Of a DNA stretch of 32,000 bases, positions 1 through 30,995 are shown one piece after another; position 1 is the first letter of the stretch, and each line of letters starts with the position of its first letter. The translations under genes and the position numbers were made by a program. Origin of the DNA: Planctomycetales bacterium (GTDB lineage Bacteria; 4484-113; JAFGCY01). The notes beneath the pieces were generated by a model, which had not been told where the DNA came from, did no database searches, and saw only the letters and a program-made list of their open reading frames with translations. The stretch lies in contig CP060262.1 in the NCBI GenBank assembly GCA_022646745.1, positions 720,001 through 752,000 on the forward strand, given 5' to 3'.

Positions 1-2592
1 CTCGCTGAATGCCAGTGCCCCGTCGGAGATGTCAATCGCCACAACACCATCCGCCGTACCATAGAACAGCAGGCTGCCACTGAGCACCAGTCCACTCGTT
101 GGCAGGGGATGGCTCTCCTGCCACACGTCCTGGCCCTGTTCATTGAGCCGATGCACCGTCCCGCTTTCCGTCACCACATAGGCCTGTGCATCATCATCTG
201 AAACTGGCACGGCAGCCGCCGCACTGTCAATTTCCTTGCTCCACAGCTCGGCCCCGGTGGCCTCAGTCAGGCAGAACACGCGGTGCGTGCCGCTCACCAG
301 GTTGCTGCCGTTGAGCAGCAGGCGGCGGAAGCTGAATGACGGTGCGCTGATTTCCTCATCGTCGTAGAATTCGTCCCAGGCAATGGACCCGTCGTCCTCG
401 AACATGGCAACGCCGCAGACGCCGGTGCCGCTGGAGGCGCTGCGCAGGCTCTCGGTCTTGCGCGTCGGCTCAAATACCGGAACATCGGTACGGAAGGTGA
501 TGCCGACGCGGCGGCGCTTCTGGGTCGGGCTGAGCGGAATCTCAGTCAGCACTGAGCTTGTCGCGCGGATGTCCGGGTCGTTGTCCAGCGGCCCGCCAAG
601 CGTCAGCTGCGGTTCGCCCGTCAGCTGCAGCTGGCCCTCCAGCCCGCTGAGCAGGCGGTCAAGCACGCTGGCATTGCCGGCCTGCATCGCGATGTTGAGC
701 CGGGACTCATTGAGCATCTGCCCGCGATCCACGAGGATCGTGCCGTCTGCGTTGTCAATCCCACCCAGCCGCGGCATGCTGATGAGGCTCAGCCGGCCAT
801 CGCTGCCGATCGCCGGGTTGAAATCGATGCGCACATCCTGCAGGCGCTCCATGTCAACGAGCGGGCTGGCCTTGAAGCGCTGTGTAAGGATGTTGTCAAA
901 GGAACGCACGCTGCCATCACCGAACAGTCCGGCGATGGTCGCCCCGCTGTCCAGCAGCTGGATCACCGGCTGGTCCACCGGCTGGCTGTCCGTTTCGCTG
1001 TTCGTTGCCGTGTCCCAGTCCACGATGCTCCATGAGCCGGAGTCATCATTGGCAACCAGCAGGCGGTCCTCCGTAGTGTCGGTGGTGAATGCGCCCCACA
1101 GTCCGCTGGCGGGCACGGCTGCCGCATCCATGCTGCCATCCGGCAGCCAGGACTGCAGGCTGGCACCATTCAGGTTGGCCCAGACACGGTCATCAGCACC
1201 CACGGCAAGCCGCGGATCGATGCCGCTGGAGCTCTGGATGCTCTGCGGGTTGAGCCCGGCGAAGTCCAGCGTGACGATAGAGTCGTCGGCCCCGTCCGTG
1301 CCCTTCAGCACCACGAACAGTCGCAGCCCGCTGGAGACGATGTTGCCCGGTGCCGGGGCGGCGAAATCATGCTCAAATGACTGCTGCACGCCGCTGCCGT
1401 TGATCAGGTGCAGGCCGAACACCAGGCCGCTGGCCGTCACGCCGGCGATGTTCTCCGTCGATGCATCCTTGAAGAAGGTGGCGGGGCGGGACAGCACGCG
1501 GCCGACGGCCTGCTGCTCCAGCACACTGCCTGTTGCATCAAGGAAGGTGTATCCGTTGTCATGCAGGGCCATCACGCCGAACTCGCCGCCGAAGTACTGC
1601 AGGTCGTTCACGCGCCAGCCGAGGTCCACGCTCCACAGCTCGCCACCGTTCTCATTGAGTTTCAATACGCGACCGTCGGTGGTGCCGAGGTAGTAGTTGT
1701 CATTTTCGTCGAAGGCCGGCGTGGTACTGTAGCCGAGGTTCAGTCCGCCGGTGTTGTACAGCACCTGTCCGTGGGTGCTGAAGTAGGTGTCACTCAGGCC
1801 GCTGTGCTGCGCGTCGCCACCGGCCATCGGCCAGCCGACGCTCTCTCCCGGCGGCTTGGTCTCATAACTGGCAATGCCCAGCTCGCGCACGCCGTTGGAT
1901 TCGAAATAGGGGCGGATGCCATAGGCATCGCCGGGGGCCAGGCTGTCCAGCTTGACCTCGAAGTAGACCTGCTTCGTCTCCGTCGGCAGGCTGATCGCGC
2001 TCGGCACCTTGGCCGTGATCGGCGTGCCCTCGCTGAAAAGCACTTCCGCCACCGGCTGGTAGCTGCCGAGGAACTGCGGTGTGGTGGTGTGCTCGACGAT
2101 GTAGCCGGTCACAGCGTTGCCGAAGTGCACGCCGATCGGGGTGATGTCAGCCAGGTTGACCTCGCCATTGCGGTCGCCGTCAGCCACTCCCTTGGTGAAC
2201 CAGCCGCTGCTGCCTTCAGTGGACTGGAATCCCACGCCGACGGGTGTCAGGTCGGAGATCGTCACCTGCCCGTTCAGGTCGTAGTCCCCGGTGTTCTGGT
2301 AATACCAGCCGACGAAGCTGCCGCCATCGCCGCTGTCCTCCGTGCCGATCTGGCTGACACGGTTGCCCAGCTCGCGCGGTGCCATGCTGACCTCACGGTC
2401 GCGTCCGGCTTCCACGCGCACCTGCTGCAGCTCATCCTGCATCTGTTGCCAGAGCGCACCATCCACGCCCTGCGGGACAGGCAGCGACTGCTGCTGCGGG
2501 TCAGGGCTGCTGGAGCCGCCGCCGCAGGAGGCGAACAGCAGGATGATGGCGGTGAGGCAGCCGCAGGCGGCCAGTCGACGCATCTGGATCAT
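1..2592 (-). CDS. Lipoprotein with two dockerin-like Ca-binding repeats followed by PQQ-like/BamB-like beta-propeller repeats. Only the N-terminal 864 codons are in the window; the ORF runs off the left edge.
   Basis: My own minus-strand translation (codons at 1-3, 4-6, ...) is open from 2592 to 1. It starts MIQMRRLAACGCLTAIILLFASCGGG (signal peptide plus lipobox FASC). Two repeats, GDYDLNGQVTISDLTPVG and DGDRNGEVNLADITPIG, look like dockerin/EF-hand repeats. Later come repeated propeller-type segments (GTTDGRVLKLNENGGELWSVDLG, ESGTVHRLNEQGQDVWQE, YGTADGVVAIDISDG). GGAG lies 7 nt upstream of ATG 2592. The ORF is absent from the track because it has no stop in the window. The + strand ORFs 383-1693 and 1408-2631 are its antisense shadows. 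Confidence 0.8.
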   Translation of the reverse strand, partial: MIQMRRLAACGCLTAIILLFASCGGGSSSPDPQQQSLPVPQGVDGALWQQMQDELQQVRVEAGRDREVSMAPRELGNRVSQIGTEDSGDGGSFVGWYYQNTGDYDLNGQVTISDLTPVGVGFQSTEGSSGWFTKGVADGDRNGEVNLADITPIGVHFGNAVTGYIVEHTTTPQFLGSYQPVAEVLFSEGTPITAKVPSAISLPTETKQVYFEVKLDSLAPGDAYGIRPYFESNGVRELGIASYETKPPGESVGWPMAGGDAQHSGLSDTYFSTHGQVLYNTGGLNLGYSTTPAFDENDNYYLGTTDGRVLKLNENGGELWSVDLGWRVNDLQYFGGEFGVMALHDNGYTFLDATGSVLEQQAVGRVLSRPATFFKDASTENIAGVTASGLVFGLHLINGSGVQQSFEHDFAAPAPGNIVSSGLRLFVVLKGTDGADDSIVTLDFAGLNPQSIQSSSGIDPRLAVGADDRVWANLNGASLQSWLPDGSMDAAAVPASGLWGAFTTDTTEDRLLVANDDSGSWSIVDWDTATNSETDSQPVDQPVIQLLDSGATIAGLFGDGSVRSFDNILTQRFKASPLVDMERLQDVRIDFNPAIGSDGRLSLISMPRLGGIDNADGTILVDRGQMLNESRLNIAMQAGNASVLDRLLSGLEGQLQLTGEPQLTLGGPLDNDPDIRATSSVLTEIPLSPTQKRRRVGITFRTDVPVFEPTRKTESLRSASSGTGVCGVAMFEDDGSIAWDEFYDDEEISAPSFSFRRLLLNGSNLVSGTHRVFCLTEATGAELWSKEIDSAAAAVPVSDDDAQAYVVTESGTVHRLNEQGQDVWQESHPLPTSGLVLSGSLLFYGTADGVVAIDISDGALAFSE

Positions 2593-2671
2593 GTCAAGCT
2601 CCGGCAGGAAAAGTACATAAGCTCGCAGTAATTCTAACAGCGACCCCCTTGCAGGGTCGCGAGGCAGGCAT

Positions 2672-2700
2672 AAAAAATGGGACGGCACAAGGCCATCCCA
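2672..2700 (-). terminator. Rho-independent terminator of sodA
   Basis: Minus-strand RNA reads UGGGAUGGC-CUUGU-GCCGUCCCA followed by UUUUUU: a 9-bp stem including one G-U pair. It lies 33 nt downstream of the sodA stop codon. Confidence 0.75.
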
Positions 2701-2732
2701 TCAATCGATCAGCTTTGCTGGCAGAGCCTGGA

Positions 2733-3347
2733 TCAGCCCTTGTGCTTGGCAAACTTCTCGGCGACCTTGTCCCAGTTGATGACGTTCCACCACGCGGCGA
2801 TGTAGTCCGGCCGGCGGTTCTGGTAATTCAGGTAGTAGGCATGCTCCCAGACATCGAGGCCGAGGATCGGCTTGTGTCCGATCATGTGCGGGCTGTCCTG
2901 GTTGGCGGTGCTGCCCACGTGCAGCTTGCCGCTGCCGTCCAGCCCGAGCCAGGCCCAGCCGCTGCCGAAGCGGGTGGCCGCCTGGTTGGAGAAGGCTTCC
3001 TTGAAGCCGTCAAACGAGCCGAACACTGAGTTAATGCCGTCCAGCAGGTCGCCTGACGGGGCACCGCCGCCGCCGGGCTTCATGGTCTTCCAGAACAGGC
3101 TGTGGTTGGCATGCCCGCCGCCGTTGTTGATCACGGCCTGGCGGATGTCCTCAGGGACGTCCTTGATGTTCTTCAGCAGCTCCCACACGCTCTTCTCCTG
3201 CAGCTCGGGATGGCCCTCAAGCGCGGAGTTCAGCTTGGCAACGTATCCCGCATGGTGCTTGCCATGGTGGATCTCCATCGTGCGGGCGTCAATGTAGGGC
3301 TCCAGCGCATCGAATGCGTAGGGCAGATCGGGCAGTACATGTGTCAT
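2733..3347 (-). CDS. sodA: Superoxide dismutase, Mn type (Fe/Mn SOD family)
   Basis: [32 protein letters not shown]..., [11 protein letters not shown] and [18 protein letters not shown] are Fe/Mn SOD signatures with Mn-type residues. Start set at ATG 3347 because GGAGGA (3354-3359) lies 6 nt upstream. The track start at 3389 adds 14 implausible residues. Confidence 0.95.
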
Positions 3348-3465
3348 CTTCATTCCTCCGCCTGTCTGATTGCAGTGGCCATCCCACAACGCGTGCCACC
3401 GCGGGCAGGCTTAATACTATCACCGAGCCTGCTGCGTTGTTTCATTGGCGACGGCCTGGCGGGCT

Positions 3466-4320
3466 TCAGGCAGCGGGCTGCTGCGGCAGTGACAGCCGGA
3501 AGCGCTGGCGCGCTGTGTCCACCTCTGGCCAGTCCTGCTCGATGATCGCGAGTACTTCGGCAATCATTCCATGCAGGTCAGCCACTGCGAGTTCCGGCGC
3601 GGCACTGAACAGTGCATTGATGCGCCGTTCCACGTCACGCGGACCGCTGCTGAACTTCGCTTCATACAGGGACAGGCGCTTGAACTCGCCGAAGTGGTAT
3701 ACGGAGTTCAGCGCGCACAGCAGGTGCAGCAGGTGGTTGGATTCCTCGACGAGGATCTGCTGGTAGTGCAGGATGTCACCACGCCGCCAGGCCATCTCGA
3801 GCGGTACCCAGGCCGGGAAGAAAATCAGGTGCGCCTGCAGCATCTTCACCGCCAGCTCACGCGGATAACTGGCAACGTAGTCCTTCAGCCAGGCGGCGGT
3901 CTCCTCGCCATGCAGTACTGATGCATCCACGATGCCGCTGGCGGCCTTCTGCATTGGCGACTCGTGGTTGTGGTTGATGAAGATGTCATCCATCCAGGCC
4001 TTCCAGTGTTCCAGCGAGGCGATGCCGAAGTCGTGCTTGATGCCATCGATGTGGAACGAGATCGCACAGCCCCCCTCGGCCGGGTCCCCGAAGAAGAAGA
4101 TCCAGTCCCCCCCGCCGAAGTGCTGCTTGAATTCCTCAAGCTGTTCGCGGCTGGGGACTTCATCGAAGTAGACCGCCATGTCCACATCACTGGCGGCATC
4201 GGCCAGCCCCTCTGCAACCGAGCCCGTCAGCAGCACGCAGCGCAGGCCCGGAAGTTTCGACAGTTCAGCGACACAGCGTCCGGCGGAAGCCAGACGGATT
4301 TCATTGTGATTGGTATCCAT
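3466..4320 (-). CDS. Nucleotidyltransferase-domain protein (Pol-beta-like NTase fold with a helical C-terminal domain)
   Basis: MDTNHNEIRLA...LLTGSVAEGLADAASDVDMAVYF carries the GS-x(n)-DxD NTase motif. I trimmed the track ORF (3466-4854) to ATG 4320. The upstream 178 residues are low-complexity S/R/P and overlap the convincing + strand gene at 4433. Confidence 0.75.
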   Translation of the reverse strand: MDTNHNEIRLASAGRCVAELSKLPGLRCVLLTGSVAEGLADAASDVDMAVYFDEVPSREQLEEFKQHFGGGDWIFFFGDPAEGGCAISFHIDGIKHDFGIASLEHWKAWMDDIFINHNHESPMQKAASGIVDASVLHGEETAAWLKDYVASYPRELAVKMLQAHLIFFPAWVPLEMAWRRGDILHYQQILVEESNHLLHLLCALNSVYHFGEFKRLSLYEAKFSSGPRDVERRINALFSAAPELAVADLHGMIAEVLAIIEQDWPEVDTARQRFRLSLPQQPAA

Positions 4321-4432
4321 GGCTTGTTTACACCGCGGCAGGACGGCAGGTTTCGCAGATGAAGGACAGCACTGCGCAGGTATTGCTATAAGCTGGTAAT
4401 GGTGCTGGCAGCGGCCAGCGGGGAGAACCTGG

Positions 4433-5805: not shown

Positions 5806-6489
5806 ATGTCAATCAACACCCTGCCGGACATCACCTCACTGTGGAAGCACAGCGACCCCGCAGCCAGCCAGGCTGCCTTCATGGAACTGATGCCAGGTGC
5901 CGAAACGGGCGGCAACATTTCCTTCAATGTCACCCTGCTCACCCAGGTTGCCCGGGCCCAGGGCCTGCAGCGCAACCATGAAGCTGCCAACGCCAGCCTG
6001 GACCGCGCCAAGCGCATGCTGGACGAAGGCAACCCGCAGGAACTGCAGCATGCACTGGTGAGCTACCTGCTGGAACGCGGCCGGGTCTACCGTGCCAGCG
6101 GTTATGAGGACCGTGCGGAGGACTACTTCCTGGAGGCCTATGAAATGGCCCTGGATGCCGAGGAAATTGCCATGGCAGTCGATGCCGCCCACATGCTGGG
6201 CCTGACACTGCAGGGTAAGGAATCGGTGGACTGGTTCAGCCGAGCCCTGAAGCATGCTTCCTCCGGCATCAATGCGCAGGTCCGTCGGTGGGAAGCCCCG
6301 CTGTGCGAACTGCTGGGCCGGATCTACGCCGAGGAAGGCCGCTCGGACGAGGCAAAGCGCTTGTTTGAGAGTGCGGTAATCCTGCGCAGCCGCCAGCCCG
6401 CACAAGCTCCCGAGAAGGAACTGCAGTGCAGCGGCGTGGCCTGTGCCTGCCCGGAAAGCGTCGCCGACGGCAGCCTGCTCGTGCCCTGA
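5806..6489 (+). CDS. TPR-like helical repeat protein without a signal peptide; paralog of the N-terminal half of the next gene
   Basis: GGAGAA lies 5 nt upstream of the ATG. TSLWKHSDPAASQAAFMELMPGAETGGN..LLTQVARAQGLQ..YLLERGRVY..FLEAYEMAL..DAAHMLG aligns by eye with residues of 6620-8104. Confidence 0.7.
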   Translation: MSINTLPDITSLWKHSDPAASQAAFMELMPGAETGGNISFNVTLLTQVARAQGLQRNHEAANASLDRAKRMLDEGNPQELQHALVSYLLERGRVYRASGYEDRAEDYFLEAYEMALDAEEIAMAVDAAHMLGLTLQGKESVDWFSRALKHASSGINAQVRRWEAPLCELLGRIYAEEGRSDEAKRLFESAVILRSRQPAQAPEKELQCSGVACACPESVADGSLLVP

Positions 6490-8817: not shown

Positions 8818-9275
8818 AACTGCTTGAAGCGGGGAGCGCGGCTCCCGGATTCACGCTGCCCAACCAGCATGGCAGCAATGTCAGCCTGGCGGAGTTCCAG
8901 GGCAGCCAGCCGGTGGTGCTGATCTTCTACCCGAAGGATGCCACGGGGGGTTGAACGGCAGAATTGGCTGAGTTCAGCCGCCGCAAGGCCGAGTTCGATG
9001 AGCATGACGCAGTGCTGCTGGGGATCAGCGGTGACAGTGTGGAAAGTCACAAGGCATTTGCCGAGGACCAGTGCTACCCCTTCAACCTGCTGGCGGATAC
9101 CGACAATGCAGTCCGCAAGGCATACAAGGCGACGGATATCACCGGTCTGCTGCCGGCTCGCGTGACTTATGTAATTGGTCGCGAGGGGAAGATAGCAGGC
9201 TACTGCAACAGCGCGATCGACATGAAGCTGCATGCAGCGCGCGCGCTGGAGATCATCGAGGGTCTAGAGGTCTAA
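8814..9275 (+). CDS. Stand-alone Bcp/PrxQ-like peroxiredoxin with in-frame TGA (8952-8954) read as selenocysteine, 153 codons
   Basis: MKLLEAGSAAPGFTLPNQHGSNVSLAEFQGSQPVVLIFYPKDATGG-[TGA]-TAELAEFSRRKAEFDEHDAVLLGISGDSVESHKAFAEDQCYPFNLLADTDNAVRKAYK...RVTYVIGREGKI. The track shows only the C-terminal part (8964-9275). The N-terminal 46 codons are in the same frame. Confidence 0.8.
8966..8979 (+). promoter_or_regulatory. Candidate bacterial SECIS apical hairpin (GGCUG-AGUU-CAGCC) starting 11 nt after UGA 8952-8954
   Basis: Same offset, stem length and AGUU loop as 7783-7796. The third stem pair is C-G here and U-A there. Confidence 0.55.
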
Positions 9276-9278
9276 GCC

Positions 9279-9959
9279 CTACTTCGGGTCCTCGCCGTCT
9301 TGCTTTGGCTGGTCCTCTGCGGATCCACCATCCTCAGCACCGCTGTTTGCAGCCTGCTCACCGGTTTCCACATGCGGCATTGGCTTTCCGGTCAGCGGGT
9401 CGATCACCATCCGGCCCTGCTTGATCTCACGGTCGCGGATCAGCATCGCCTCGTTAACACGGCCGAGGTCCGCATCCTGGTAGCTCAGCAGGAACTTCCC
9501 GCCCCGGCGGCGCATCGCCATCAGCTCAATCGTGCGGTCATCATGGGTCCAGCGGGCGAAGAACTGGCTTTCACCGGTATTGCCGGCGGCTTCAGCGGTT
9601 TCACCGTTCACATCAAAGATCTTGCTGATGGTCTTTTCCACGTCCCGGCCGTCGATTTCCGCCCGCTTCTCCACGTAGATGCAGGTCCCCTCGTAGAAGC
9701 GGACCACATACTGCACTTCCTCATGGTGCCGGCAGGCGATCTCCCAGGTGCTGGTGGTGGCCACGTCATAGGCGATTTCCCAGTCCTTGCCATGCTTGTC
9801 GTCGTAGATCATCTTCGCCGCATCCTCCTGGCTCATGCCATAGCTGAAGGCCTTGTCGTTGAGGAATTCGGTCTCAGCCCAGGCCCTGAGCGGCAGCAGG
9901 CAAAGCAGCAACAGGGGCAGCAGCAGTCGCAAAACAGGCTTTGTGGTGCCATTGGTCAT
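9279..9959 (-). CDS. Secreted hypothetical protein
   Basis: Signal peptide MTNGTTKPVLRLLLPLLLLCLLPLRAWA-ETE. GGAG lies about 9 nt upstream. Protein-like composition and an acidic C-terminal tail. Convergent with the peroxiredoxin, with only 3 nt between the stop codons. Confidence 0.7.
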   Translation of the reverse strand: MTNGTTKPVLRLLLPLLLLCLLPLRAWAETEFLNDKAFSYGMSQEDAAKMIYDDKHGKDWEIAYDVATTSTWEIACRHHEEVQYVVRFYEGTCIYVEKRAEIDGRDVEKTISKIFDVNGETAEAAGNTGESQFFARWTHDDRTIELMAMRRRGGKFLLSYQDADLGRVNEAMLIRDREIKQGRMVIDPLTGKPMPHVETGEQAANSGAEDGGSAEDQPKQDGEDPK

Positions 9960-10208
9960 ATGTATCGCTCCGGGCTAAGTTTAACCGAGCCGGTCGGAGG
10001 CAGCTGTCCAGCGGCAGGCCAGCTTCTGAATAATATGGACCGCATATAGGCAAAACCGCTGAAAAATGCTAAATTATGTGTTCGATTAGGCCCGTTTCGG
10101 GCCGGATATTGTTTCGGGGCGTTAACCTCTAGCGTTATCGCACTGTGGTTGAGAGCCGCCAGGCTGCAAAGTCGGTGGCGGTGTAACAACATTTGGAGGG
10201 TTTATACG

Positions 10209-11156
10209 ATGCGGATTCTTCTTGCAGCATTAAGCCTGATCGTGCTGATCTGCAGTGCGGCCGCTGCTCCCGCGGAGCTCGAGGGCACGATTGATGCCCA
10301 CTTCGCCTCCGTCAACGCCCTGGGTGTGAACCCGGTGGACGGCATCCTTTACAGCGCCGGCAAGGATGGCCGCGTGCGTATCTGGGACCCCGACAGCCTC
10401 GAGATGATCCTCGAGGTGCAGGCCTGCCTGACCGGTGTGAACGACATCGCCGTAAGCAATGACGGTTCGCTTGTCGCCACTGCCGGCAATGACGGCTTCA
10501 TCCAGGTATGGGATGCCCTGACAGCCGAGCTTGAGCTGGCCTTCCCGGCCCACGACGGCCCGGTCAACACCCTGGCCTTTGATGTGAACGATGAGTTCCT
10601 CTACAGTGGCGGCGACGACGGTTTCGTCCGCAGCTGGGAAGTCGAGGGCGAGGATGACATCTTCGTGCTCAACTGGGAGGCCTTCACCCACGTCAACGGT
10701 GTGAACGACCTGCTGGTCAACAGCGAGGCTGAGTACATGTTCAGCGGTGGTGCGGACGGCAAGATCGCCTTCTTCGACACCCTGGCCGGTCGCCTCGAGA
10801 ACACCGTGCAGGCCTTTGAGAATGCCGAAGTGCTCTGCCTGAGCTTCGCCAAGGGTGAGGCCTGCCTTGCAGCGGGCGCCACCAACGGTGAGTTCCGCGC
10901 CTGGGACGCCGCCACCGGCACCCAGATCTGCGAAGTGCGTGCCCATGCCGGCAACGTGAACACCATCTACAGCGCCAACGGCCTCGTGGTCACCGGCGGT
11001 GAGGATGGCCACATCCGCATGTGGAACGACCACGGCCAGATGGTCGGCGACCTCCAGGCACACGTGCTTGGCGTGAACGCCTTCACCGTCAGCGATGACA
11101 CCATCTTCACCGGCGGTTCCGACTACAAGGTCCGTGTCTGGGGCGCCAACTTCTAG
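10209..11156 (+). CDS. WD40/beta-propeller repeat protein with N-terminal signal peptide
   Basis: MRILLAALSLIVLICSAAAAPAE. Repeated GG.DG.IR.WD / VN.L.. units (GKDGRVRIWD, GNDGFIQVWD, GDDGFVRSWE, GEDGHIRMWN, GSDYKVRVWG). GGAGG lies 9 nt upstream of ATG 10209, so the track start at 10149 was trimmed. Confidence 0.85.
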   Translation: MRILLAALSLIVLICSAAAAPAELEGTIDAHFASVNALGVNPVDGILYSAGKDGRVRIWDPDSLEMILEVQACLTGVNDIAVSNDGSLVATAGNDGFIQVWDALTAELELAFPAHDGPVNTLAFDVNDEFLYSGGDDGFVRSWEVEGEDDIFVLNWEAFTHVNGVNDLLVNSEAEYMFSGGADGKIAFFDTLAGRLENTVQAFENAEVLCLSFAKGEACLAAGATNGEFRAWDAATGTQICEVRAHAGNVNTIYSANGLVVTGGEDGHIRMWNDHGQMVGDLQAHVLGVNAFTVSDDTIFTGGSDYKVRVWGANF

Positions 11157-11184
11157 AAGTCGTCCTGACTGAATCTGATTTACT

Positions 11185-11216
11185 AAGGCCAGCCTGCGGG
11201 CTGGCCTTTTTGTTTT
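11185..11216 (+). terminator. Rho-independent terminator of the WD40 gene
   Basis: AAGGCCAGCC-tgcg-GGCTGGCCTT followed by TTTTGTTTT. Confidence 0.8.
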
Positions 11217-11288
11217 GCCATCTCACGCAAGCGTTCGATGGACTCTGGTTGCGCACTGGACCGGAAAGCAAGTTCCCGGATCCAGTGC
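11216..11288 (+). other. Structured repeat motif, copy B (hairpin H1 11218-11241, hairpin H2 11253-11288)
   Basis: H1 is CCATC-tc-ACGC-aa-GCGT-tc-GATGG. H2 is GCACTGG...CCAGTGC. It is homologous to 30762-30834 with compensatory substitutions in both helices. It starts directly after a terminator T-tract. Confidence 0.5.
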
Positions 11289-11808
11289 AGACATTGTAGG
11301 TAAATCGGGTTAAGCCGTAGGCGAAATTCCGCTGTAAGCGGAACTGAGCCAAGGGCGAAGTCCCGCCACAGGCGGGATCGCGCTGAAGTTATGGGAGATT
11401 GGAAGATGCACCGAGCAATCAGCCAGGAGCTCGCTTCGGGCAGTATTGCATACCCGCGATTGCTTGCATGAGCGGGAAGGAGAATCAGACTGGCTCTGCG
11501 CTGGCGCATCCGGGGCGCGCTAAAGTTGCAGTTTCACCCTGTTTCATTTGCATTGCGGCGCAATAGCCCTGCGACATCGCAGGTACAATATGTATCGATG
11601 AATCCGCGCAAGGAGACAGTCGTGGGACGTGACATGATCACACGTTTCGCCCGCACCTACCGTTGCTGCAGCGCCAAGGTGCTGCAAAACAAGCTGCTCG
11701 CCTCCACACCTACTTAATCCCCCGCGGCCCTGCCCGCATCTGCACACGTTTCCACATGCAAGCACGGCAAGTCCGTGACATTTCGTTTGATGTTCCCAGG
11801 AGACAACA

Positions 11809-13743
11809 ATGGGTGATTCAGTAGCAACAAAGATCCTCAAGCAGCATCTCGTCGACGGCGAGATCGCCCCCGGCAATGAGATCGGGATCCGCATCGACCA
11901 GACCCTGCACCAGGACGCCACCGGCACGATGGTGATGCTGGAGCTGGAGGCTATGGGCCTCGATCGCGTGAAGACGGAACTGTCCGTCACCTACGTGGAC
12001 CACAACATGCTGCAAAGCGACTTCCGCAATGCGGATGACCACCGCTACCTGCAAAGCGTGGCCCAGAAGCTCGGCATCCACTACAGCCGTCCCGGCAACG
12101 GGATCTGCCACCAGGTGCACCTTGAGCGCTTCGGCGCACCGGGCCGCACCCTGCTCGGTTCCGACTCGCACACCCCGACCGGCGGCGGACTCGGCATGAT
12201 CTCGATCGGCGCCGGCGGACTGGACGTGGCGGTGGCGGCTGGCGGCGGGGCCTACTACCTGCCCTGCCCGAAGATCATAGGCGTGCGCCTGACAGGCAAG
12301 CTGCAGCCCTGGGTGGCCAGCAAGGACATCATCCTCGAAATGCTGCGCCGCCTGACCGTGAAGGGCGGCTTCGGAAAGATCTTCGAATACCACGGCCCGG
12401 GCATCGAATGCCTGGACGTTCCGGCTCGCAGCACCGTCTGCAACATGGGTGCGGAGCTCGGCGCCACCACCAGCCTGTTCCCGAGTGACTGGCAAACGAA
12501 GAAGTACCTCGAGGCGATGGGCCGCGGTGAGGTCTGGCAGGAACTGATGCCGGACGCCGACGCCGAGTATGACGAACTGATCGAGATCAACCTCGACGAA
12601 CTGGAGCCGCTGATCGCCAAGCCGAGCAACCCGGACCTCGTGGTCCCGGTGCGTGAGGTGGCCGGCACCAAGCTGCACCAGGTCTGCGTCGGCAGCTGCA
12701 CCAACTCGAGCTACCACGACCTGGCAATTTGCGCCAATGTGCTGAAGGACAACATCGTCGCTGACAACGTCAGCATGACGCTCACCCCCGGCAGCCGCAA
12801 CGTATTCAACGAAATCGCCGCCAACGGCATGCTGGCGGACATCATCGCGGCCGGCGCGCGCATCCTCGAAAGCGCATGCGGGCCCTGCATCGGCATGGGC
12901 CAGGCCCCGCCGAGCCAGGGCGTGAGCCTGCGCACCTTCAACCGCAACTTCCTCGGCCGCAGCGGCACGAAGGACGCCTACGTCTACCTCTGCAGCCCGG
13001 AGGTGGCGGCCGTCAGCGCGCTGCGCGGCGAGATCACCGACCCGCGCGACTGGGGCGAGTACCCGGCGGTCGAGATGCCGGAGCAGTACCTCGTTGACGA
13101 CCGGATGATCATCGACCCGCCGGCGGATGCCAGCGCGGTCGTGGTTGAGCGTGGTCCGAACATCGTGCCGCTGGAGGACTTCACGGCCACCCCGGACGGG
13201 ATCGAGGCTGAGGTGATCCTCAAGACCGCTGACAACATCTCCACTGACCACATCATGCCGGCCGGTGCCAAGGTGCTGCCCTACCGCTCGAACATCCCCG
13301 AGATCAGCAAGTTCACCTTCGGCGTGGTTGACAGCGAGTTCCACGACCGCGCGATGGCCATGAAGGAAAACGGCGGCAGCATCATCATCGGTGGCAGCAA
13401 CTACGGCCAGGGCTCGTCGCGCGAGCATGCGGCGATCGCCCCGCGCTACCTCGGCGTGAAGGCCGTGATCGTGAAGGACTTCGCCCGCATCCACTGGAAC
13501 AACCTGATCAACTTCGGCATCGTGCCGCTGCAGTTCGCCGATCCGGCGGACTATGACAGCGTGGCCCAGGGCGACCGGCTCGCGATCCGCGACCTGCACA
13601 GCCAGATCCGCAATGGCAGCGAGGTCAGGGTTGACAACCTGACGAAGGGCACGAGCTTCACCGCCACACATTCGCTCAGCGGACGCCAGGTGCATGTGCT
13701 GCTGGCCGGCGGGCTGATCAACACCGTGAAGGAAGCGAGCTAG
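11809..13743 (+). CDS. Aconitase-family hydratase, ~645-aa 'Aquifex-type' architecture, with a full set of Fe-S ligand cysteines
   Basis: Carries GICHQVHLE, GSDSHT, NMGAELGAT, VGSCTNSSYHD, ACGPCIGMGQ, RTFNRNFLGRSG and GQGSSREHAA. AGGAGA lies 6 nt upstream of the ATG. Confidence 0.9.
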   Translation: MGDSVATKILKQHLVDGEIAPGNEIGIRIDQTLHQDATGTMVMLELEAMGLDRVKTELSVTYVDHNMLQSDFRNADDHRYLQSVAQKLGIHYSRPGNGICHQVHLERFGAPGRTLLGSDSHTPTGGGLGMISIGAGGLDVAVAAGGGAYYLPCPKIIGVRLTGKLQPWVASKDIILEMLRRLTVKGGFGKIFEYHGPGIECLDVPARSTVCNMGAELGATTSLFPSDWQTKKYLEAMGRGEVWQELMPDADAEYDELIEINLDELEPLIAKPSNPDLVVPVREVAGTKLHQVCVGSCTNSSYHDLAICANVLKDNIVADNVSMTLTPGSRNVFNEIAANGMLADIIAAGARILESACGPCIGMGQAPPSQGVSLRTFNRNFLGRSGTKDAYVYLCSPEVAAVSALRGEITDPRDWGEYPAVEMPEQYLVDDRMIIDPPADASAVVVERGPNIVPLEDFTATPDGIEAEVILKTADNISTDHIMPAGAKVLPYRSNIPEISKFTFGVVDSEFHDRAMAMKENGGSIIIGGSNYGQGSSREHAAIAPRYLGVKAVIVKDFARIHWNNLINFGIVPLQFADPADYDSVAQGDRLAIRDLHSQIRNGSEVRVDNLTKGTSFTATHSLSGRQVHVLLAGGLINTVKEAS

Positions 13744-13796
13744 GAGGCCAGGCAGATTGCCTGGCATTTGCCAAGCTTTCAGCTTGGCCTCCACAA

Positions 13797-13891
13797 GCAA
13801 TGAAGAATGAGTGATGAGCAATGAGCCTAAGTCAGGCAGAGGTCACCTCGCTGCTGGCGATGCTCATTGCTCACTCTTCATTGCTCATTGC
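13797..13891. repeat. Imperfect 30-nt inverted repeat built from GAGCAATGA-like units (arms 13797-13826 and 13862-13891)
   Basis: The arms are GCAATGAAGAATGAGTGATGAGCAATGAGC and GCTCATTGCTCACTCTTCATTGCTCATTGC, with 24/30 complementary positions. The inner 12 bp are perfect and the loop is 35 nt. Same architecture as 18677-18755. Confidence 0.7.
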
Positions 13892-13895
13892 TGTC

Positions 13896-13918
13896 CGGCG
13901 GCTGGGAGCCGCCGCTAC
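13896..13918 (+). repeat. REP-like hairpin CGGCGGC-tggga-GCCGCCG-CTAC
   Basis: 7-bp GC stem and 5-nt loop. Member of a family seen 6-7 times between 13.9 and 18.8 kb. Confidence 0.7.
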
Positions 13919-13962
13919 GGCTTCTATAATGACCACTCACAACGACCAGGGAGAAGAGTGAT

Positions 13963-15909
13963 ATGGGACTGACAGTTGCCCAGAAGATACTGAAGGAGCA
14001 TCTCGTCGAGGGCGAGATGGTGATCGGCCAGGAAATCGGCATCCGGATTGACCAGTGCCTGCAGCAGGACGCCACTGGCACCATGGTGATGCTGGAGCTG
14101 GAGGCGATGGGCCTGCCGCAGGTGAAGACCGATGTCAGCGTGCAGTATGTCGACCACAACCTCGTGCAGAACGACTACAAGAACGCCGACGACCACCTGT
14201 TCCTGCTGAGCGCCGCGCAGCGCTTCGGCCACTGGTATAGCCGCCCCGGCAACGGCATCAGCCACCCGGTGCACTACGAGCGCTTCGGCAAGCCCGGTGC
14301 CACGATGCTCGGCTCGGACAGCCATACCCCGGCTGCCGGCGGCATGGGCATGATCGCAATCGGTGCCGGCGGCATTGACGTGGCGATGGCCAACGCGGGC
14401 GAGCCCTTCTTCTTCAAGATGCCGAAGATCTGGGGCGTGAAGCTAACCGGCGAGCTGCCTGACTGGGTGTCCAGCAAGGACATCATCCTCGAGATGCTGC
14501 GCCGCCACGACGTGAAGGGCGGGCTGGGCTGCATCATCGAATACTACGGCCCCGGCGTTGACCAGCTCAGTGCAATGGACCGCCACGTGATCTGCAACAT
14601 GGGAGCGGAGCTCGGTGCCACCACCAGCCTGTTCGCCAGTGACGGCGTCACGAAGGAATTCCTGCGCCAGATGGGCCGCGAGGGCGACTGGAAGGAACTG
14701 CTGCCGGATGCCGATGCGAAGTATGACCGCGAGGAGCATATCGAGCTCAGTGAGCTGGAGCCGCTGATCGCCATGCCGACATCCCCGGGCAACGTTAAGA
14801 AGGTCAGCGAGGTCGCCGGCGAGAAGATCTACCAGAGCTACATCGGCAGCAGTGCCAACCCGGAGTACCGCGCGCTCGCAATGGCCAGTGAGGTTGTCAA
14901 GGAGCGCAGCGTGGCTCCCCACGTTTCCTTCGATGTCAACCCGGCCAGCCGCCAGATCCTTGAGAACATCGTCTACGACGGCTACATGACCGCCCTGATC
15001 CACAGCGGCGCGCGCATCCACCAGGCCGGCTGCAACGGCTGCATCGGCATGGGCCAGGCCCCGGCCACGCATGAGATCAGCGTGCGCACCGTGCCGCGCA
15101 ACTTCCCCGGCCGCAGTGGCACGAAGGAGGACAAGGTCTGCCTCGTCAGCCCGGAGACCGCCGTTGCCAGCGCCGTGACCGGTGTGATCACCGACCCGCG
15201 CACGCTCGGCATGCCCTACCCGAAGATCAAGGACCCCGAGAACCCGCGCCTGAACACCGAGCAGCTGCTGGCGCCGCTGCCGCTGGAGGAAGCGCTGAAG
15301 GTCGAGCTGCGCAAGGGCCCGAACGTCAAGAGCCTGCCGCTGTTTGATGAGGTGCCTGACACAATCGAGGTCAAGGTGCTGCTGAAGGTCGGTGACAACA
15401 TCACCACTGACCACATCTCACCGGCCGGCAGCCGCGTGCTGCCCTTCCGCTCGAACATCCCCGCGATCGCCGAGTTCAGCTATGAGCTGATCGACCCGGA
15501 CTACCCGAAGAACGCACTGGCAATCAAGGAGCAGGGCGGGCATGCGATCGTCGGCGGCTTCAACTACGGCCAGGGTTCATCGCGCGAGCATGCCGCCTTG
15601 GCCCCGCGCTACCTCGGCCTGCGCCTCGTGCTGGTGAAGGACTTCGCCCGCATCCACTGGCAGAACCTGATCAACTTCGGCATCCTGCCGCTGCAGTTTG
15701 ACAACGAGGCGGACTATGACGCGCTGGACAACGGCGACGTGCTTCGCATCGAGAACCTGCACCAGCAGGTGACCGACGGGCCGGAGGTGACGGTACGCAA
15801 CATGACCAGGGGCACGGACATCCCGGCGCACCATACGCTCTCGCAGCGCCAGATGGAAGTGCTGCTTAAGGGTGGCCTGATCAACTGGGTCAAGGCGAAG
15901 CATCAGTAG
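13963..15909 (+). CDS. Aconitase-family paralog lacking the first Fe-S ligand cysteine (GSSAN instead of GSCTN)
   Basis: Collinear with 11809-13743 (GSDSHT, NMGAELGAT, GCNGCIGMGQ, RTVPRNFPGRSG, GQGSSREHAA). The differences are IGSSANPEY at the position of VGSCTNSSY and GISHPVHYE at GICHQVHLE. GGGAGAAG lies upstream of the ATG. Confidence 0.9.
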   Translation: MGLTVAQKILKEHLVEGEMVIGQEIGIRIDQCLQQDATGTMVMLELEAMGLPQVKTDVSVQYVDHNLVQNDYKNADDHLFLLSAAQRFGHWYSRPGNGISHPVHYERFGKPGATMLGSDSHTPAAGGMGMIAIGAGGIDVAMANAGEPFFFKMPKIWGVKLTGELPDWVSSKDIILEMLRRHDVKGGLGCIIEYYGPGVDQLSAMDRHVICNMGAELGATTSLFASDGVTKEFLRQMGREGDWKELLPDADAKYDREEHIELSELEPLIAMPTSPGNVKKVSEVAGEKIYQSYIGSSANPEYRALAMASEVVKERSVAPHVSFDVNPASRQILENIVYDGYMTALIHSGARIHQAGCNGCIGMGQAPATHEISVRTVPRNFPGRSGTKEDKVCLVSPETAVASAVTGVITDPRTLGMPYPKIKDPENPRLNTEQLLAPLPLEEALKVELRKGPNVKSLPLFDEVPDTIEVKVLLKVGDNITTDHISPAGSRVLPFRSNIPAIAEFSYELIDPDYPKNALAIKEQGGHAIVGGFNYGQGSSREHAALAPRYLGLRLVLVKDFARIHWQNLINFGILPLQFDNEADYDALDNGDVLRIENLHQQVTDGPEVTVRNMTRGTDIPAHHTLSQRQMEVLLKGGLINWVKAKHQ

Positions 15910-15928
15910 CGGCGGCTTCCAGCCGCCG
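15906..15928 (-). repeat. REP-like hairpin in reverse orientation (GTAG-CGGCGGC-ttcca-GCCGCCG), overlapping the TAG stop of the aconitase paralog
   Basis: Exact reverse complement of the 17031-17053 copy. The stop codon 15907-15909 lies inside the GTAG tail. Confidence 0.7.
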
Positions 15929-15983
15929 ACAAGTTTGGCGGTTGGAGTGTGGAGGTTGGAGGTGCGGCGCAAGTCGCACAACC

Positions 15984-16985: not shown

Positions 16986-17029
16986 AGGATTTGGGAGCTT
17001 GGGTGTAGGGTGTAGCGGAAGGGATCAGG
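16986..17029 (+). repeat. Right direct repeat flanking the low-GC gene
   Basis: See 16088-16123. It contains an internal GGGTGTAG duplication. Confidence 0.65.
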
Positions 17030-17030
17030 T

Positions 17031-17053
17031 CGGCGGCTGGAAGCCGCCGCTAC
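17031..17053 (+). repeat. REP-like hairpin CGGCGGC-tggaa-GCCGCCG-CTAC
   Basis: Consensus copy of the family. Confidence 0.7.
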
Positions 17054-17175
17054 GGGTCATTGTTCACAAAGATTGTGCGATAGCAAGTGTCACAGATCCG
17101 TTGCCAGACTATCGTCTGGCCGCCGACGACTTGCTTGTGCCAGGCCTCCGCCCCTCCTGCACCTTCCACGCGACC

Positions 17176-17197
17176 CAATCCCGCCAGGGCGGGATTG
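17176..17197 (-). terminator. Terminator-like hairpin after lpdA (no U-tract)
   Basis: CAATCCCGC-cagg-GCGGGATTG, a 9-bp stem 5 nt beyond the lpdA stop codon. No T-run follows on the minus strand. Confidence 0.4.
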
Positions 17198-17202
17198 CAG
17201 CG

Positions 17203-18651
17203 TCAGACCGCCGAGTCCTTGGACGAGGCGGCAGATCGCTTCGGTACATACATATCCGTCACCGTGCCGAGGAAGACCTCTGCAGCGAAGCCGACTGATT
17301 CAGCGAGCGTCGGATGCGCGTGGATCGTCTCCGCGATGTCCTCCGCATGCGCCCCCATCTCGATTGCCAGCGCCGCCTCCGCGATCAGGTCGCCCGCGCC
17401 GACGCCGACGATGCTGCAGCCGAGGATGCGGCCTGTGGCGTTGTCAAACACCATCTTTGTCAGGCCCTCCATGCGGTCCAGCGCGATCGCCTTGCCGCTG
17501 GCCGCCCAGGGGAACTTGCCGACGCCGTAGTCGATACCCTGTTCCTTCGCCTCCTCCTCCGTCAGGCCGGCCCAGGCCAGCTCCGGGTCGGTGAACACCA
17601 CGGCCGGGATGCAGCGCTTGTCCCAGACGGAGTGGTGCCCGGCGATCACCTCGGCGGCGACGCGGCCCTCGTGGCTGGCCTTGTGCGCCAGCATCGGCTG
17701 CCCGGCGATGTCACCGATGGCGAAGATATGCGGCACGTTGGTGCGCATCTGATTGTCAATTCTGATGAACCCGCCCTCGCCGACTTCCACGCCGGCCATC
17801 TCGATGGCGAGCATGTCACTGTTGCTGCGGCGGCCGATGCTGACGAGCACCCGGCCATACTCACCGCTGAACGCACCCTCGCTGCCCTCGAAGTCCACCT
17901 TGACCGACTTGCCGGTGTCCTTGATGCCGGTGACCTTCGTTGACAGCATGATCCTGCCGAACTGGCCCTTCAGGCGCTTCTCCAGCGGGCGCACCGCGTC
18001 GCGGTCGGCCCCGCTGAGGATGTGGTCCTGCAGCTCCACCACGTCAACCTTGCTGCCCAGTGCGGCATACACGCTGCCGAGCTCCAGGCCGATGTAGCCA
18101 CCGCCGATCACCAGCAGGCTGTCCGGGATCTCCTCGATCTCGAGCGCCGTCGTGCTGTCCAGCACCTTGTCGCTGCCAATCTCGAGGAAGGGTAGGCGCA
18201 GGATGCGGCTGCCGGCGGCGATGATGCAGTGCCTGAATTCAATCGTATCGCCACTCTTCTTCAGCGTGACGGAATTCGGCGATGCGAACTCGGCGTAGTC
18301 GGAGATGAACTCGCAGCCACGCTGCTTCGCCATGCCCTTCAGGCCGCCGGTCAGGCGGTTTACCACGCTGTCCTTGAACTGGCGCAGCTTGAGCTTGTCA
18401 ATCTGCGGACTGCCGTAGCTAACACCATGCTTTTCCAGCTCAGCGGCTTCAGTGATGTGCGCCGCGATGTGCAGGTAGGCCTTGCTCGGGATGCAGCCCA
18501 CGCGCAGGCAGACGCCGCCGGGGACCTCGTTTTCGTCCACGAGGATGGTATTCACACCGAGGTCGGCGGCGCGGAAGGCAGCGGTATAGCCGCCGGGCCC
18601 GGCTCCGATCACGAGTAACTCACAGGTCTTTGTTGCCATGTCTGTTTCCAT
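17203..18651 (-). CDS. lpdA: Dihydrolipoyl dehydrogenase (E3 of the pyruvate dehydrogenase complex)
   Basis: ELLVIGAGPGGYTAAFRAADLG, the redox-active GGVCLRVGCIPSK, and the C-terminal HAHPTLAE interface motif. The start is ATG 18651 (METDMATK) or ATG 18639 (MATK). The track start at 18687 is a TTG inside a repeat. Confidence 0.93.
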   Translation of the reverse strand: METDMATKTCELLVIGAGPGGYTAAFRAADLGVNTILVDENEVPGGVCLRVGCIPSKAYLHIAAHITEAAELEKHGVSYGSPQIDKLKLRQFKDSVVNRLTGGLKGMAKQRGCEFISDYAEFASPNSVTLKKSGDTIEFRHCIIAAGSRILRLPFLEIGSDKVLDSTTALEIEEIPDSLLVIGGGYIGLELGSVYAALGSKVDVVELQDHILSGADRDAVRPLEKRLKGQFGRIMLSTKVTGIKDTGKSVKVDFEGSEGAFSGEYGRVLVSIGRRSNSDMLAIEMAGVEVGEGGFIRIDNQMRTNVPHIFAIGDIAGQPMLAHKASHEGRVAAEVIAGHHSVWDKRCIPAVVFTDPELAWAGLTEEEAKEQGIDYGVGKFPWAASGKAIALDRMEGLTKMVFDNATGRILGCSIVGVGAGDLIAEAALAIEMGAHAEDIAETIHAHPTLAESVGFAAEVFLGTVTDMYVPKRSAASSKDSAV

Positions 18652-18784
18652 AGCGGCGGCATCCTGCCGCCGGTTGGTGATGAGCAATGAAGAATGAGCA
18701 ATGAGTCAGACATATGCTTCGATAGTCTCATTGCTCATTGCTCATAACTCATTGCTTCAGTCAGCGGCTGGAAGCCGCCGCTAC
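18651..18784. repeat. ~134-bp composite palindromic element in the aceF-lpdA spacer: REP (reverse) 18651-18672, GAGCAATGA-type inverted repeat 18677-18705/18727-18755, REP (forward) 18762-18784
   Basis: Left end TAGCGGCGGC-atcct-GCCGCCG; right end CAGCGGC-tggaa-GCCGCCGCTAC. The inner stem AATGAGCAATGAG/CTCATTGCTCATT is 13 bp and perfect, with a 21-nt loop. The element fills almost the whole spacer between the aceF stop (18787) and the lpdA start. Confidence 0.7.
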
Positions 18785-30635: not shown

Positions 30636-30664
30636 TTGCGACGAAACGCAAAACGAGTTATCAT
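30636..30664 (+). promoter_or_regulatory. Sigma70-type promoter TTGCGA-17 nt-TATCAT
   Basis: Good -35 and -10 hexamers with a 17-nt spacer in a non-coding spacer. Predicted start near 30671. Confidence 0.5.
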
Positions 30665-30670
30665 CCTAAT

Positions 30671-30759
30671 GTGATGGAGCGACCATCACACGAGCTTTTC
30701 CTCCCTGCGAGGGAGGGTAAAAGAAAGACCCCGATGAATCACGGGGTCTTTATTTTTTT
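30671..30759 (+). ncRNA. Candidate small RNA (~89 nt), unclassified
   Basis: The promoter above is followed by three hairpins. The first is GUGAUGG-agcga-CCAUCAC (30671-30689). The second is CCUCCC-ugcga-GGGAGG (30700-30716). The third is the terminator GACCCCG-augaauca-CGGGGUC plus UUUAUUUUUUU (30727-30759). No plausible ORF. Confidence 0.5.
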
Positions 30760-30761
30760 CT

Positions 30762-30834
30762 TGCCGTCTCGTGCGAGCACTCGACGGTCTTAGGATGCGC
30801 AGTGGCTCAGGACAGTTCGTCCTTCGTCCACTGC
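30762..30834 (+). other. Structured repeat motif, copy A1 (H1 30764-30787, H2 30799-30834)
   Basis: H1 is CCGTC-tc-GTGC-ga-GCAC-tc-GACGG. H2 is GCAGTGG...CCACTGC. Homologous to 11216-11288. It starts directly after a terminator T-tract. Confidence 0.5.
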
Positions 30835-30862
30835 AGACGTTTAGCAAGCCCGATGCCATTGC

Positions 30863-30899
30863 TGCCGTCTCACGCAAGCGCTCGGCGGTCTTGGGATGT
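30863..30899 (+). other. Structured repeat motif, partial copy A2 (H1 only, 30865-30888)
   Basis: CCGTC-tc-ACGC-aa-GCGC-tc-GGCGG followed by TCTTGGGATG, the same flank as A1 (TCTTAGGATG) and B (ACTCTGGTTG). Confidence 0.45.
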
Positions 30900-30995
30900 G
30901 GAGCCGCGTTGCGGAGGCATAGCCGTAGCTGCGCAGGCTCAATTGGCAAAGCCTGCGAAGCTGTGCTTCGCGGCTCCCCTGATCCCTTCTTCCCG

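Follow-up and report, generated by a model that had tools for sequence, protein, structure and literature searches.

Repetitive extragenic palindromic (REP) sequences and bacterial interspersed mosaic elements (BIMEs) of enterobacteria are said to have been described by Stern in 1984 and by Gilson in 1984 and 1991. The element analyzed here is a two-hairpin motif (H1 followed by H2), copies of which were detected in a 32,000-nucleotide (nt) stretch of contig CP060262.1 from a Planctomycetales bacterium, referred to as the window, among other sites in the spacer upstream of two aconitase genes. Coordinates given without a locus name refer to this window, and loci from related genomes are designated by L numbers. 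With a probability of roughly 75%, the motif represents a copy of a new, lineage-restricted repeat family of the REP/BIME type or of the type of the REP doublets forming hairpins (REPINs), resembling miniature inverted-repeat transposable elements (MITEs) in its doublet form and residing at gene ends in uncultured UBP7-type metagenome-assembled genomes (MAGs). This interpretation was chosen because the copies are gene-end palindromes forming mosaic clusters, inverted doublets and tandem arrays, are confined to one clade, and show turnover at orthologous sites.

The basic unit of the family consists of a pyrimidine-rich leader, the hairpin H1, the tetranucleotide TCTG and one of three alternative second hairpins (H2a, H2b or H2c). 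H1 is a short imperfect palindrome of 24 nt, composed of a 5-bp stem, a 2x2 TC/TC internal loop, a 3-bp stem and a 4-nt CRAG loop. Units were found as singlets, in direct tandem arrays with a period of ~70-83 nt, and as inverted doublets of ~175 nt.

Following the definitions of REPs, BIMEs and REPINs in PMC3337134, the H1 family shares with the enterobacterial elements the location of short imperfect extragenic palindromes at gene 3′ ends and between operon genes, compensatory pairing, tandem clusters, and mosaic clusters of palindromes and short motifs, many copies per genome being documented on the REP/BIME side. The BIME-type mosaic is represented by H1 joined in varied orders with H2a, H2b or H2c, linkers and a terminator-like module. 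However, the H1 sequence is unrelated, and the unit combines two different hairpins in direct order with an interchangeable H2, whereas BIMEs alternate inverted REPs. Furthermore, the H1 family differs by its strong sense bias relative to the upstream gene, its invariant TC/TC internal loop and the lack of a GTAG head.

The REPIN-RAYT system of Pseudomonas, RAYT being the REP-associated tyrosine transposase (Bertels & Rainey, PMC3116915, PMC3337134), likewise features inverted palindromes with a short spacer, an arrangement that recurs at seven loci as the ~175-nt element described here. In both systems, singlets, doublets and tandem arrays coexist, and the restriction of the H1 family to one clade suggests vertical inheritance, as for REPINs. 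Read on the complementary strand, the H1 core is GCTTGC, resembling the REP cores of strain SBW25 listed in PMC3337134. The H1 family departs from REPINs in that the two halves of a doublet, one with H2c and the other with H2b, do not match as reverse complements, and in that direct tandem arrays of single units occur as frequently as doublets. Furthermore, a RAYT gene was not found in the 183 kb examined, and no excision events were observed among the compared loci.

Modular MITE-like repeats also comprise the pneumococcal BOX element (boxA-boxB(n)-boxC), the Correia/NEMIS elements of Neisseria and the enterobacterial ERIC sequences, for which effects on mRNA are known. These resemble the H1 family in their repeated internal modules, stable hairpins and gene-end location, sometimes over stop codons, but the H1 family, found in a different host phylum, is a different one and is devoid of an identified target-site duplication or DDE-type terminal inverted repeat. 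The mycobacterial interspersed repetitive units (MIRUs) of Mycobacterium tuberculosis, reportedly described by Supply et al. in 1997, form intergenic direct tandem arrays of 40-100-nt units that follow the orientation of adjacent genes, have ends abutting or overlapping upstream stop codons, and vary in copy number between relatives, all of which is reminiscent of H1 units. In contrast, MIRUs are not defined by covarying hairpins and contain short translationally coupled open reading frames (ORFs), none of which is conserved in the H1 family. Finally, integron attC sites share with H1 the folded single-strand hairpin in which shape and unpaired bases rather than sequence are conserved, as well as the position just 3′ of a stop codon in gene orientation. 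Unlike attC sites, the H1 family has no R′/R″ core sites, cassette array or nearby integrase, and its tandem units have no ORFs between them.

Hairpin copies and covariation in the window and in related genomes

The sequences quoted in the initial annotation were recovered exactly where it had placed them, including the H1 copies TGCCATCTCACGCAAGCGTTCGATGG (11216-11241), TGCCGTCTCGTGCGAGCACTCGACGG (30762-30787) and TGCCGTCTCACGCAAGCGCTCGGCGG (30863-30888), which a repeat search grouped at 71-80% identity. A degenerate H1 pattern had four matches in the window compared to 0.01 expected from shuffles, and the covariance model R1, built from 49 distinct copies, identified five. The two additional copies (E ~1e-10, Table 1) are located at 11447-11482(-), in the same spacer as the copy at 11216, and at 17202-17237(-). 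In copy A (11216), the stems comprise positions 11218-11222/11237-11241 and 11225-11227/11232-11234, with the TC/TC internal loop between them and CAAG as the loop. Copies B and C are arranged in tandem, 101 nt apart, copy B lying directly 3′ of a terminator-like hairpin with a T-run (30724-30760).

Both H1 and H2 fold as had been proposed, irrespective of whether RNA or DNA parameters are applied. The pairing of H2 type a, GCACTGGA..TCCAGTGC at 11253-11288 and GCAGTGG..CCACTGC at 30799-30834, is indeed kept through compensatory changes, the two window copies differing on both sides. A further copy, GCGCTGAG..CTCAGCGC, was found in L010 (4430-4470), giving three independent copies with four compensatory positions. 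The copy at 30863, initially regarded as partial, contains a complete H1 and deserves that description only with respect to its second hairpin, which is a different one (30901-30940). The hairpins that had been cited for the rest of the aconitase spacer, TTCCGC-tgtaa-GCGGAA (11327-11343) and TCCCGCC-aca-GGCGGGA (11361-11377), are present.

Covariation statistics were calculated for 73 distinct model-aligned copies. Stem positions were paired in 95.1% of cells, compared to 23-43% when the partners were slid by 1-3 columns; double-sided changes occurred in six of the eight base pairs (104 cells), and none of 500 shuffles attained the observed pairing or covariation score. When only the unpaired core (TC..GC.AGC..TC) was used for searching, 56 out of 61 matches were able to pair, four of the five failures being truncated or degenerate family copies, so that a pairing filter is not the source of the covariation signal. 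The outer stem was encountered as CCGTC/GACGG, CCGCC/GGCGG, CCCTC/GAGGG, CCAGC/GCTGG, CCATC/GATGG, CCCGC/GCGGG and CCGCT/AGCGG, and the inner stem as GCG/CGC, GTG/CAC, ATG/CAT, ACG/CGT and GTC/GAC. T12, C13, C17, A19, G20, T29 and C30 were each retained in 70-73 of the 73 copies; the near-invariant unpaired bases are those of the TC/TC internal loop (71-73 of 73), the C-R-A-G loop, the T two bases 5′ of the stem, which belongs to the pyrimidine-rich leader, and the TCTG following the stem. The second hairpin H2c, with the consensus TCTG-NNNN-TGC-hairpin-GGGTC-N′N′N′N′-TGAAG, is commoner than H2 type a, and its 4-bp helix was fully paired in all 22 copies, with five covarying types.

Pairing that persists while both sides change had been interpreted as a selected nucleic-acid structure rather than a fresh duplication, a view borne out by these data. 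The combination of covarying helices and fixed unpaired bases points to recognition of the hairpin by a putative protein partner. Covariation alone does not distinguish an RNA hairpin from one of single-stranded DNA; as the strand is written, A.C mismatches are more numerous than G.T mismatches (14 vs. 5), which weakly hints that the complementary strand is the folding one. A register forming a GNRA tetraloop at the H1 apex was considered and discarded, as covariation favours the symmetric register with the CRAG loop.

To determine the distribution of the family, one genome per species (185,579 species) was scanned with a pattern carrying N at every covarying position. Several matches per genome were obtained only for four related MAGs, namely bacterium AC1.30, UBP7 HKST-UBA03, UBP7 HKST-UBA01 and Planctomycetales Ww346. 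About 30 other matches, each single, in coding DNA of unrelated bacteria and without the downstream motif, were taken as chance, and zero matches were recorded in viral contigs within the scan. The window as a whole matched metagenome contigs only, and relatives of the window aconitase show 87-92% identity; its host is therefore regarded as an uncultured member of this clade. Model R1 detected 67 copies in 22 MAG loci (151 kb, picked for containing a copy), and 80 copies in 190 kb when the window and five short motif-bearing metagenome contigs were included, the latter being too few to seek an associated gene. The five copies in the 32-kb window belong to a stretch that was not selected for containing the motif.

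On the 1.88-Mb contig JAWLAZ010000001.1 of AC1.30, all nine exact-pattern H1 matches are on the plus strand regardless of gene direction, and the model places 27 copies on the plus and five on the minus strand (L005, L015, L024, L035, L043, L044 and L055; 56 kb to 1.62 Mb). This strand bias may be chromosome-scale and could have a connection with replication; with pieces of 8 kb, the GC skew proved too noisy for assigning the loci to a replication strand. A literature search returned no paper on the motif sequence, and a search on UBP7 yielded general MAG surveys and taxonomy papers only, whose titles and abstracts contain no repeat description.

Placement at gene ends and turnover at orthologous sites

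Placement figures were obtained with our own ORF heuristic and tRNA matches. Among the 70 placed copies, overlap with a gene is limited to its last codons (window 17202; L038, L043 and L055), and all others are extragenic. The gene on the 5′ side is encoded on the same strand for 44 out of 59 copies and 23 out of 31 clusters (~74%), and zero copies are located between divergent genes. Copies often begin 2-10 nt past a stop codon, tRNA or terminator T-run: twelve clusters start at most ~10 nt from a stop codon or tRNA end or overlap the gene end, and others are situated 3′ of a terminator T-run. In the convergent spacer of L035, plus-strand copies adjoin the plus-strand gene and minus-strand copies the minus-strand gene. 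A role of the element in providing or targeting TGA as a stop codon was considered, TGA being found at seven of eight adjacent stops, and was rejected, as L043 has TAG where L010 has TGA and TGA accounts for 55% of the stops in these loci anyway.

One of the overlapping copies (17202-17237, minus strand) encodes the last 10 codons (..SAASSKDSAV) of a dihydrolipoamide-dehydrogenase-like gene with Pyr_redox domains (17203-18651, minus strand), the TGA within the following TCTGAC serving as the stop codon. Apparently, H1 replaced or extended the C-terminus of this gene product. Towards the end of the window, copy B starts directly after the T-run of a candidate small RNA (sRNA) gene of ~90 nt (30636-30760, plus strand), in which promoter-like boxes (TTGCGA-17-TATCAT, 30636-30664) are combined with a strong terminator hairpin (30724-30751) and its T-run. 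This candidate had no Rfam match and no copy among the related loci examined.

An alignment spanning the entire ~175-nt composite was obtained for seven loci, among them window 11212-11490, with the order T-rich flank, H1, H2c, linker, reverse H2b and reverse H1. The window doublet carries an extra ~100 nt after its left H1 relative to the other doublets, comprising the H2 type a at 11253-11288 and following sequence up to ~11343. The check for ends of a known mobile element thus had a mixed outcome: H1 does form the inverted ends of a recurrent composite, but this element is not a known one.

The loci L021 (from UBA03) and L044 (from AC1.30) are orthologs of window 9000-14700, with genes of 82-92% nucleotide identity. 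Conservation of the flanks extends to 11216, where the WD40 terminator ends, and resumes at 11560, the length of the intervening stretch being 344 nt (window), 1263 nt (L021) or 3183 nt (L044). The L021 and L044 spacers contain the same kinds of modules with H1 copies reversed relative to the aconitase gene, and L044 harbors a seven-copy tandem H1 array with a period of ~70 nt. The left hairpin of the L021/L044 doublet has the same architecture with almost all stem bases different (CTGCT TC AGC TAAA GCT TC AGCAG), a difference more suggestive of replacement or conversion than of point drift. Similarly, the orthologous genes of L010 and L043 end with the same residue, but the H1 and H2 variants immediately downstream differ, and those of L035 and L046 (70% amino-acid identity) have different numbers of units downstream.

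A two-gene cassette was also noticed in these orthologous spacers (L021 2700-3500; L044 3270-3900 and 5090-5800), being present once in UBA03 and twice in AC1.30 and absent from the window. It has its own TTGACA/TACAAT promoter, shows less codon-position GC contrast than its flanking genes, and encodes a ~81-aa protein and a ~144-182-aa protein with weak Asp_protease_2/RVP matches.

Competing explanations for the repeat

What was observed can be stated plainly: the motif is multi-copy, is located outside genes or at gene ends, has covarying stems with invariant unpaired bases, and varies in copy number, orientation and sequence at orthologous sites. Under the REP/BIME/REPIN-like interpretation, the hairpin would form in single-stranded DNA or RNA, and a trans-acting protein would read it via the TC/TC internal loop, the CRAG loop, the flanking T and TCTG. 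Copies would multiply by transposition through a putative enzyme, in addition to tandem amplification or gene conversion. By analogy to the REPs of Escherichia coli, sense copies that directly follow a stop codon would, when transcribed, probably influence the mRNA 3′ end with respect to stability, attenuation or termination efficiency.

Several points weigh against this interpretation. No transposase (RAYT/Y1, DDE or other) adjoins any copy in the 183 kb: ten neighbouring ORFs had no Y1_Tnp match in Pfam, and the candidates included neither a Y1 nor a DDE transposase in Pfam and NCBIfam. The repeat-flanked 226-aa gene of the window encodes a membrane protein with no family match, and of the long gene-poor stretches inspected for a transposase, L035 4170-6259 consists of non-coding repeats and L023 738-3712 (from UBA01) contains AT-richer, possibly foreign genes. 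Moreover, a GTAG-type head, as typical of RAYT-associated REPs, was found on neither strand of the H1 units, whereas a different repeat family of the window (GTAGCGGCGGC..) does have one. No clean pair of filled and empty sites with target duplication was present among the compared loci, and we infer mobility from the variable content of orthologous sites. The copy density of the MAG loci is not a per-genome copy number, since these loci were chosen for having a copy. Finally, the 3:1 sense bias and the tight stop-codon spacing could mean a host-selected RNA function.

A bolder version of the repeat interpretation, put forward tentatively and considered rather improbable, is that the H1-H2 units constitute a new, RAYT-independent structured repeat system. 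Its two-hairpin modules would be read via their invariant unpaired bases by a putative protein of the UBP7-type clade and positioned almost to the nucleotide downstream of stop codons and tRNA ends, with a chromosome-scale strand bias. If true, it would represent a new mechanism of single-strand-DNA transposition or targeting, or a clade-wide 3′-end RNA code.

The RNA function mentioned above would make the motif a host-selected structured module of mRNA 3′ ends, spread by duplication and kept for its function rather than being selfish or mobile DNA. In this role, it would bind an RNase or RNA-binding protein, act as a stabiliser, or modulate transcription or translation termination. The sense orientation of 74% of the clusters, the twelve clusters close to stop codons or tRNA ends, the lack of copies between divergent genes and the strand-matched copies in the L035 convergent spacer are consistent with such a role, as are the covarying stems with invariant unpaired bases and the retention of a unit at the same post-stop position in L010/L043 and L035/L046 despite differing sequence. 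However, one in four clusters has an antisense orientation relative to both neighbouring genes, a group that includes the seven-copy array and the copies in the orthologous aconitase spacers, and inverted doublets and long tandem arrays are hard to square with a per-gene RNA role. In addition, A.C outnumbers G.U (14 vs. 5) among the mismatches of the sense strand, and 9 of 9 exact-pattern copies occupy one strand of the 1.88-Mb AC1.30 contig, whatever the gene direction. As an explanation of its own, the 3′-end module, although the main rival, is judged unlikely; it is compatible with the REP/BIME/REPIN-like interpretation, as REPs also get co-opted. Regarding a role of H1 as an intrinsic terminator, no T-run follows H1 (TCTG and H2 follow instead), and a terminator scan of the window regions picked only the upstream hairpins at 11185-11208 and 30724-30751.

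The initial annotation implied a discrete functional RNA of the aconitase spacer, that is, an aconitase-specific cis-regulatory leader, a riboswitch-like RNA or a read-through 3′ untranslated region (UTR) element, and the position upstream of two aconitase genes and the stable predicted folds would fit such a view. It did not hold up, because the motif is a module of a dispersed family (80 copies in 190 kb) that occurs in both orientations, in tandem arrays and inverted doublets, and follows unrelated genes, a tRNA and a candidate sRNA. Among orthologs, only 11560-11808 is conserved, and the motif part is replaced, inverted or expanded (344 to 1263 and 3183 nt), the content and orientation of the spacers differing accordingly. 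As the initial annotation had anticipated, no Rfam family could be assigned: the window, both motif regions and 19 related loci gave no gathering-level match except tRNAs, and hits with E-values up to 10 were far below the thresholds. The element does not serve as a regulator specific to the aconitase genes, and an aconitase-specific RNA is considered very unlikely.

Equally improbable are integron-attC-like or other site-specific recombination sites, i.e., folded single-strand hairpins at cassette boundaries. The conserved shape with variable sequence, the conserved extrahelical bases, the units right after stop codons in mostly gene orientation, and the two-gene cassette present or absent in the same spacer among relatives are reminiscent of such sites. 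On the other hand, copies are scattered beside housekeeping genes rather than arrayed as cassettes, ORFs are missing between many of the tandem units, a GTTRRRY/RYYYAAC core is missing (the unit ends are ..TCTG and ..TGAAGTTAC/GC), the L021/L044 cassette is not bounded by H1 on both sides, and no integrase was seen in the sampled loci.

Chance similarity, recent local duplication or a fragment of a minus-strand coding gene, to which only minus-strand ORFs of 108 and 87 aa overlapping copies would point, is already refuted by the four matches compared to 0.01 expected, by pairing kept at only 71-80% identity, by the 80 copies including those in other genomes, and by translations that differ between copies (IERLREMAK vs. 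VECSHETAR) and lack coding composition, the 108-aa ORF within 11216-11560 showing no codon-position GC contrast.

The conserved aconitase leader and further features of the window

The spacer had been described as poor in ORFs, which is correct for 11216-11560 but not for 11560-11808, where a conserved 31-codon ORF was found. The latter part shows ~89-92% identity to L021 and L044 and does not belong to the repeat family; within 11216-11808 it alone is conserved, making it, rather than the repeat, the candidate regulatory leader. Across three genomes, the 31-codon ORF, which has a good Shine-Dalgarno motif, displays seven synonymous vs. one non-synonymous change with its stop codon retained, a pattern of purifying selection, and its peptide had no NCBIfam model match. 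Together with the hairpin upstream of the aconitase gene, it could represent a leader peptide with attenuator, or a small protein. The features of the window are compiled in Table 1.

Table 1. Repeat modules and leader features identified in the window, sorted by position.
Feature	Position	Strand	Evidence and remarks
Terminator-like hairpin GGCCAGCC-tgcg-GGCTGGCC with T-run	11185-11215	+	10-bp stem; 3′ of WD40/beta-propeller gene
H1 copy A	11212-11247	+	43.6 bits, E 3.8e-10 (cmsearch); predicted fold; left end of composite element
H2 type a (GCACTGGA-CCGG...CCGG-a-TCCAGTGC)	11253-11288	+	Folds; homologs at 30799-30834 and L010 4430-4470
Degenerate H2 type c module (..TCCCGCC-aca-GGCGGGA-TC-GCGC-TGAAGTTA)	11344-11391	+	Aligns with H2c of six other doublets
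Central linker TGGGAGATTGGAAGATGCA (11392-11410) and reverse-complemented H2 type b	11392-11452	-	Matches in L021, L044, L043, L006
H1, minus-strand copy (CCCGC TC ATG CAAG CAa TC GCGGG)	11447-11482	-	45.1 bits, E 1.4e-10 (cmsearch); right, inverted end of composite
Additional H2c-like module TCTGCGCTGGCGCATCCGGGGCGCGCTAAAGTTGC	11495-11529	+	Read from sequence; blastn match L043 5082-5107
-10-like TACAAT	11584-11589	+	In aconitase leader
Shine-Dalgarno motif AAGGAG	11610-11615	+	In aconitase leader
31-codon ORF VGRDMITRFARTYRCCSAKVLQNKLLASTPT	11622-11717	+	In aconitase leader
Hairpin and T-rich tract	11763-11777	+	Directly upstream of aconitase ribosome-binding site
Full H1 + H2c unit	17162-17237	-	43.1 bits for H1 (17202-17237; cmsearch)
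H1 copy B (30758-30793) and H2 type a (30799-30834)	30758-30834	+	51.7 bits (cmsearch); predicted folds
H1 copy C (30859-30894) and different second hairpin (30901-30940)	30859-30940	+	47.1 bits (cmsearch); predicted fold

The leader precedes two tandem paralogous aconitase genes (11809-13743, 644 aa, and 13963-15909, 648 aa) sharing 71-79% nucleotide identity, and this tandem arrangement is conserved in L021, L044 and L001-L003. The terminator of the WD40 gene on the other side of the spacer is conserved in the orthologs L021 and L044. Moreover, its hairpin (GGCCAGCC-nnnn-GGCTGGCC-TTTT) is near-identical at two unrelated AC1.30 loci, L055 4367-4395 and 6392-6419, with 87% identity over 54 nt including H1 at 4367 and an identical 28-mer at 6392, one of these terminator copies being followed by H1 and the other not. 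Thus, some of the terminator-like hairpins of this clade are apparently repeat modules in their own right.

The other long spacers of the window are filled by several further repeat families. A second palindromic family, GTAGCGGCGGCTTCCAGCCGCCGAC, with a GTAG head, was detected at 15906-15930(+), 17029-17053(-), 18760-18784(-) and 13896-13920(-), and also in L021; the TAG of its copy at 15906 is the stop codon of the second aconitase gene, and the copy at 18784 begins 2 nt past the stop codon of the E2 gene. A third family consists of AGCAATGA/GCTCATTGCT-type units at 13795-13892 and 18648-18757, which form inverted repeats between the two aconitase genes and 3′ of the lpdA-like gene; its 30-mers recur in L023, L035 (five copies), L055, L021 and L044. 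Finally, downstream of the H1 copy in L023, an island of genes with little codon-position GC contrast was noticed (1146-3636). Its putative products, labelled from reading the sequence only, are ankyrin-like, PIN-like, small STAS-like and ATPase-like proteins, and it may represent foreign DNA or a defence island.

For the biology of this lineage, the results mean that its long, ORF-poor and hairpin-rich spacers consist of a few repeat modules, which should not be mistaken for riboswitches or sRNAs, and that the aconitase leader at 11560-11808 with its small ORF is the place to look for regulation. A well-defined REP/REPIN-like family, with 80 aligned copies and a covariance model, is added from a candidate phylum without a cultured member. 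It provides a handle for finding the recognising enzyme, as well as a marker for strain typing and MAG binning within the clade.

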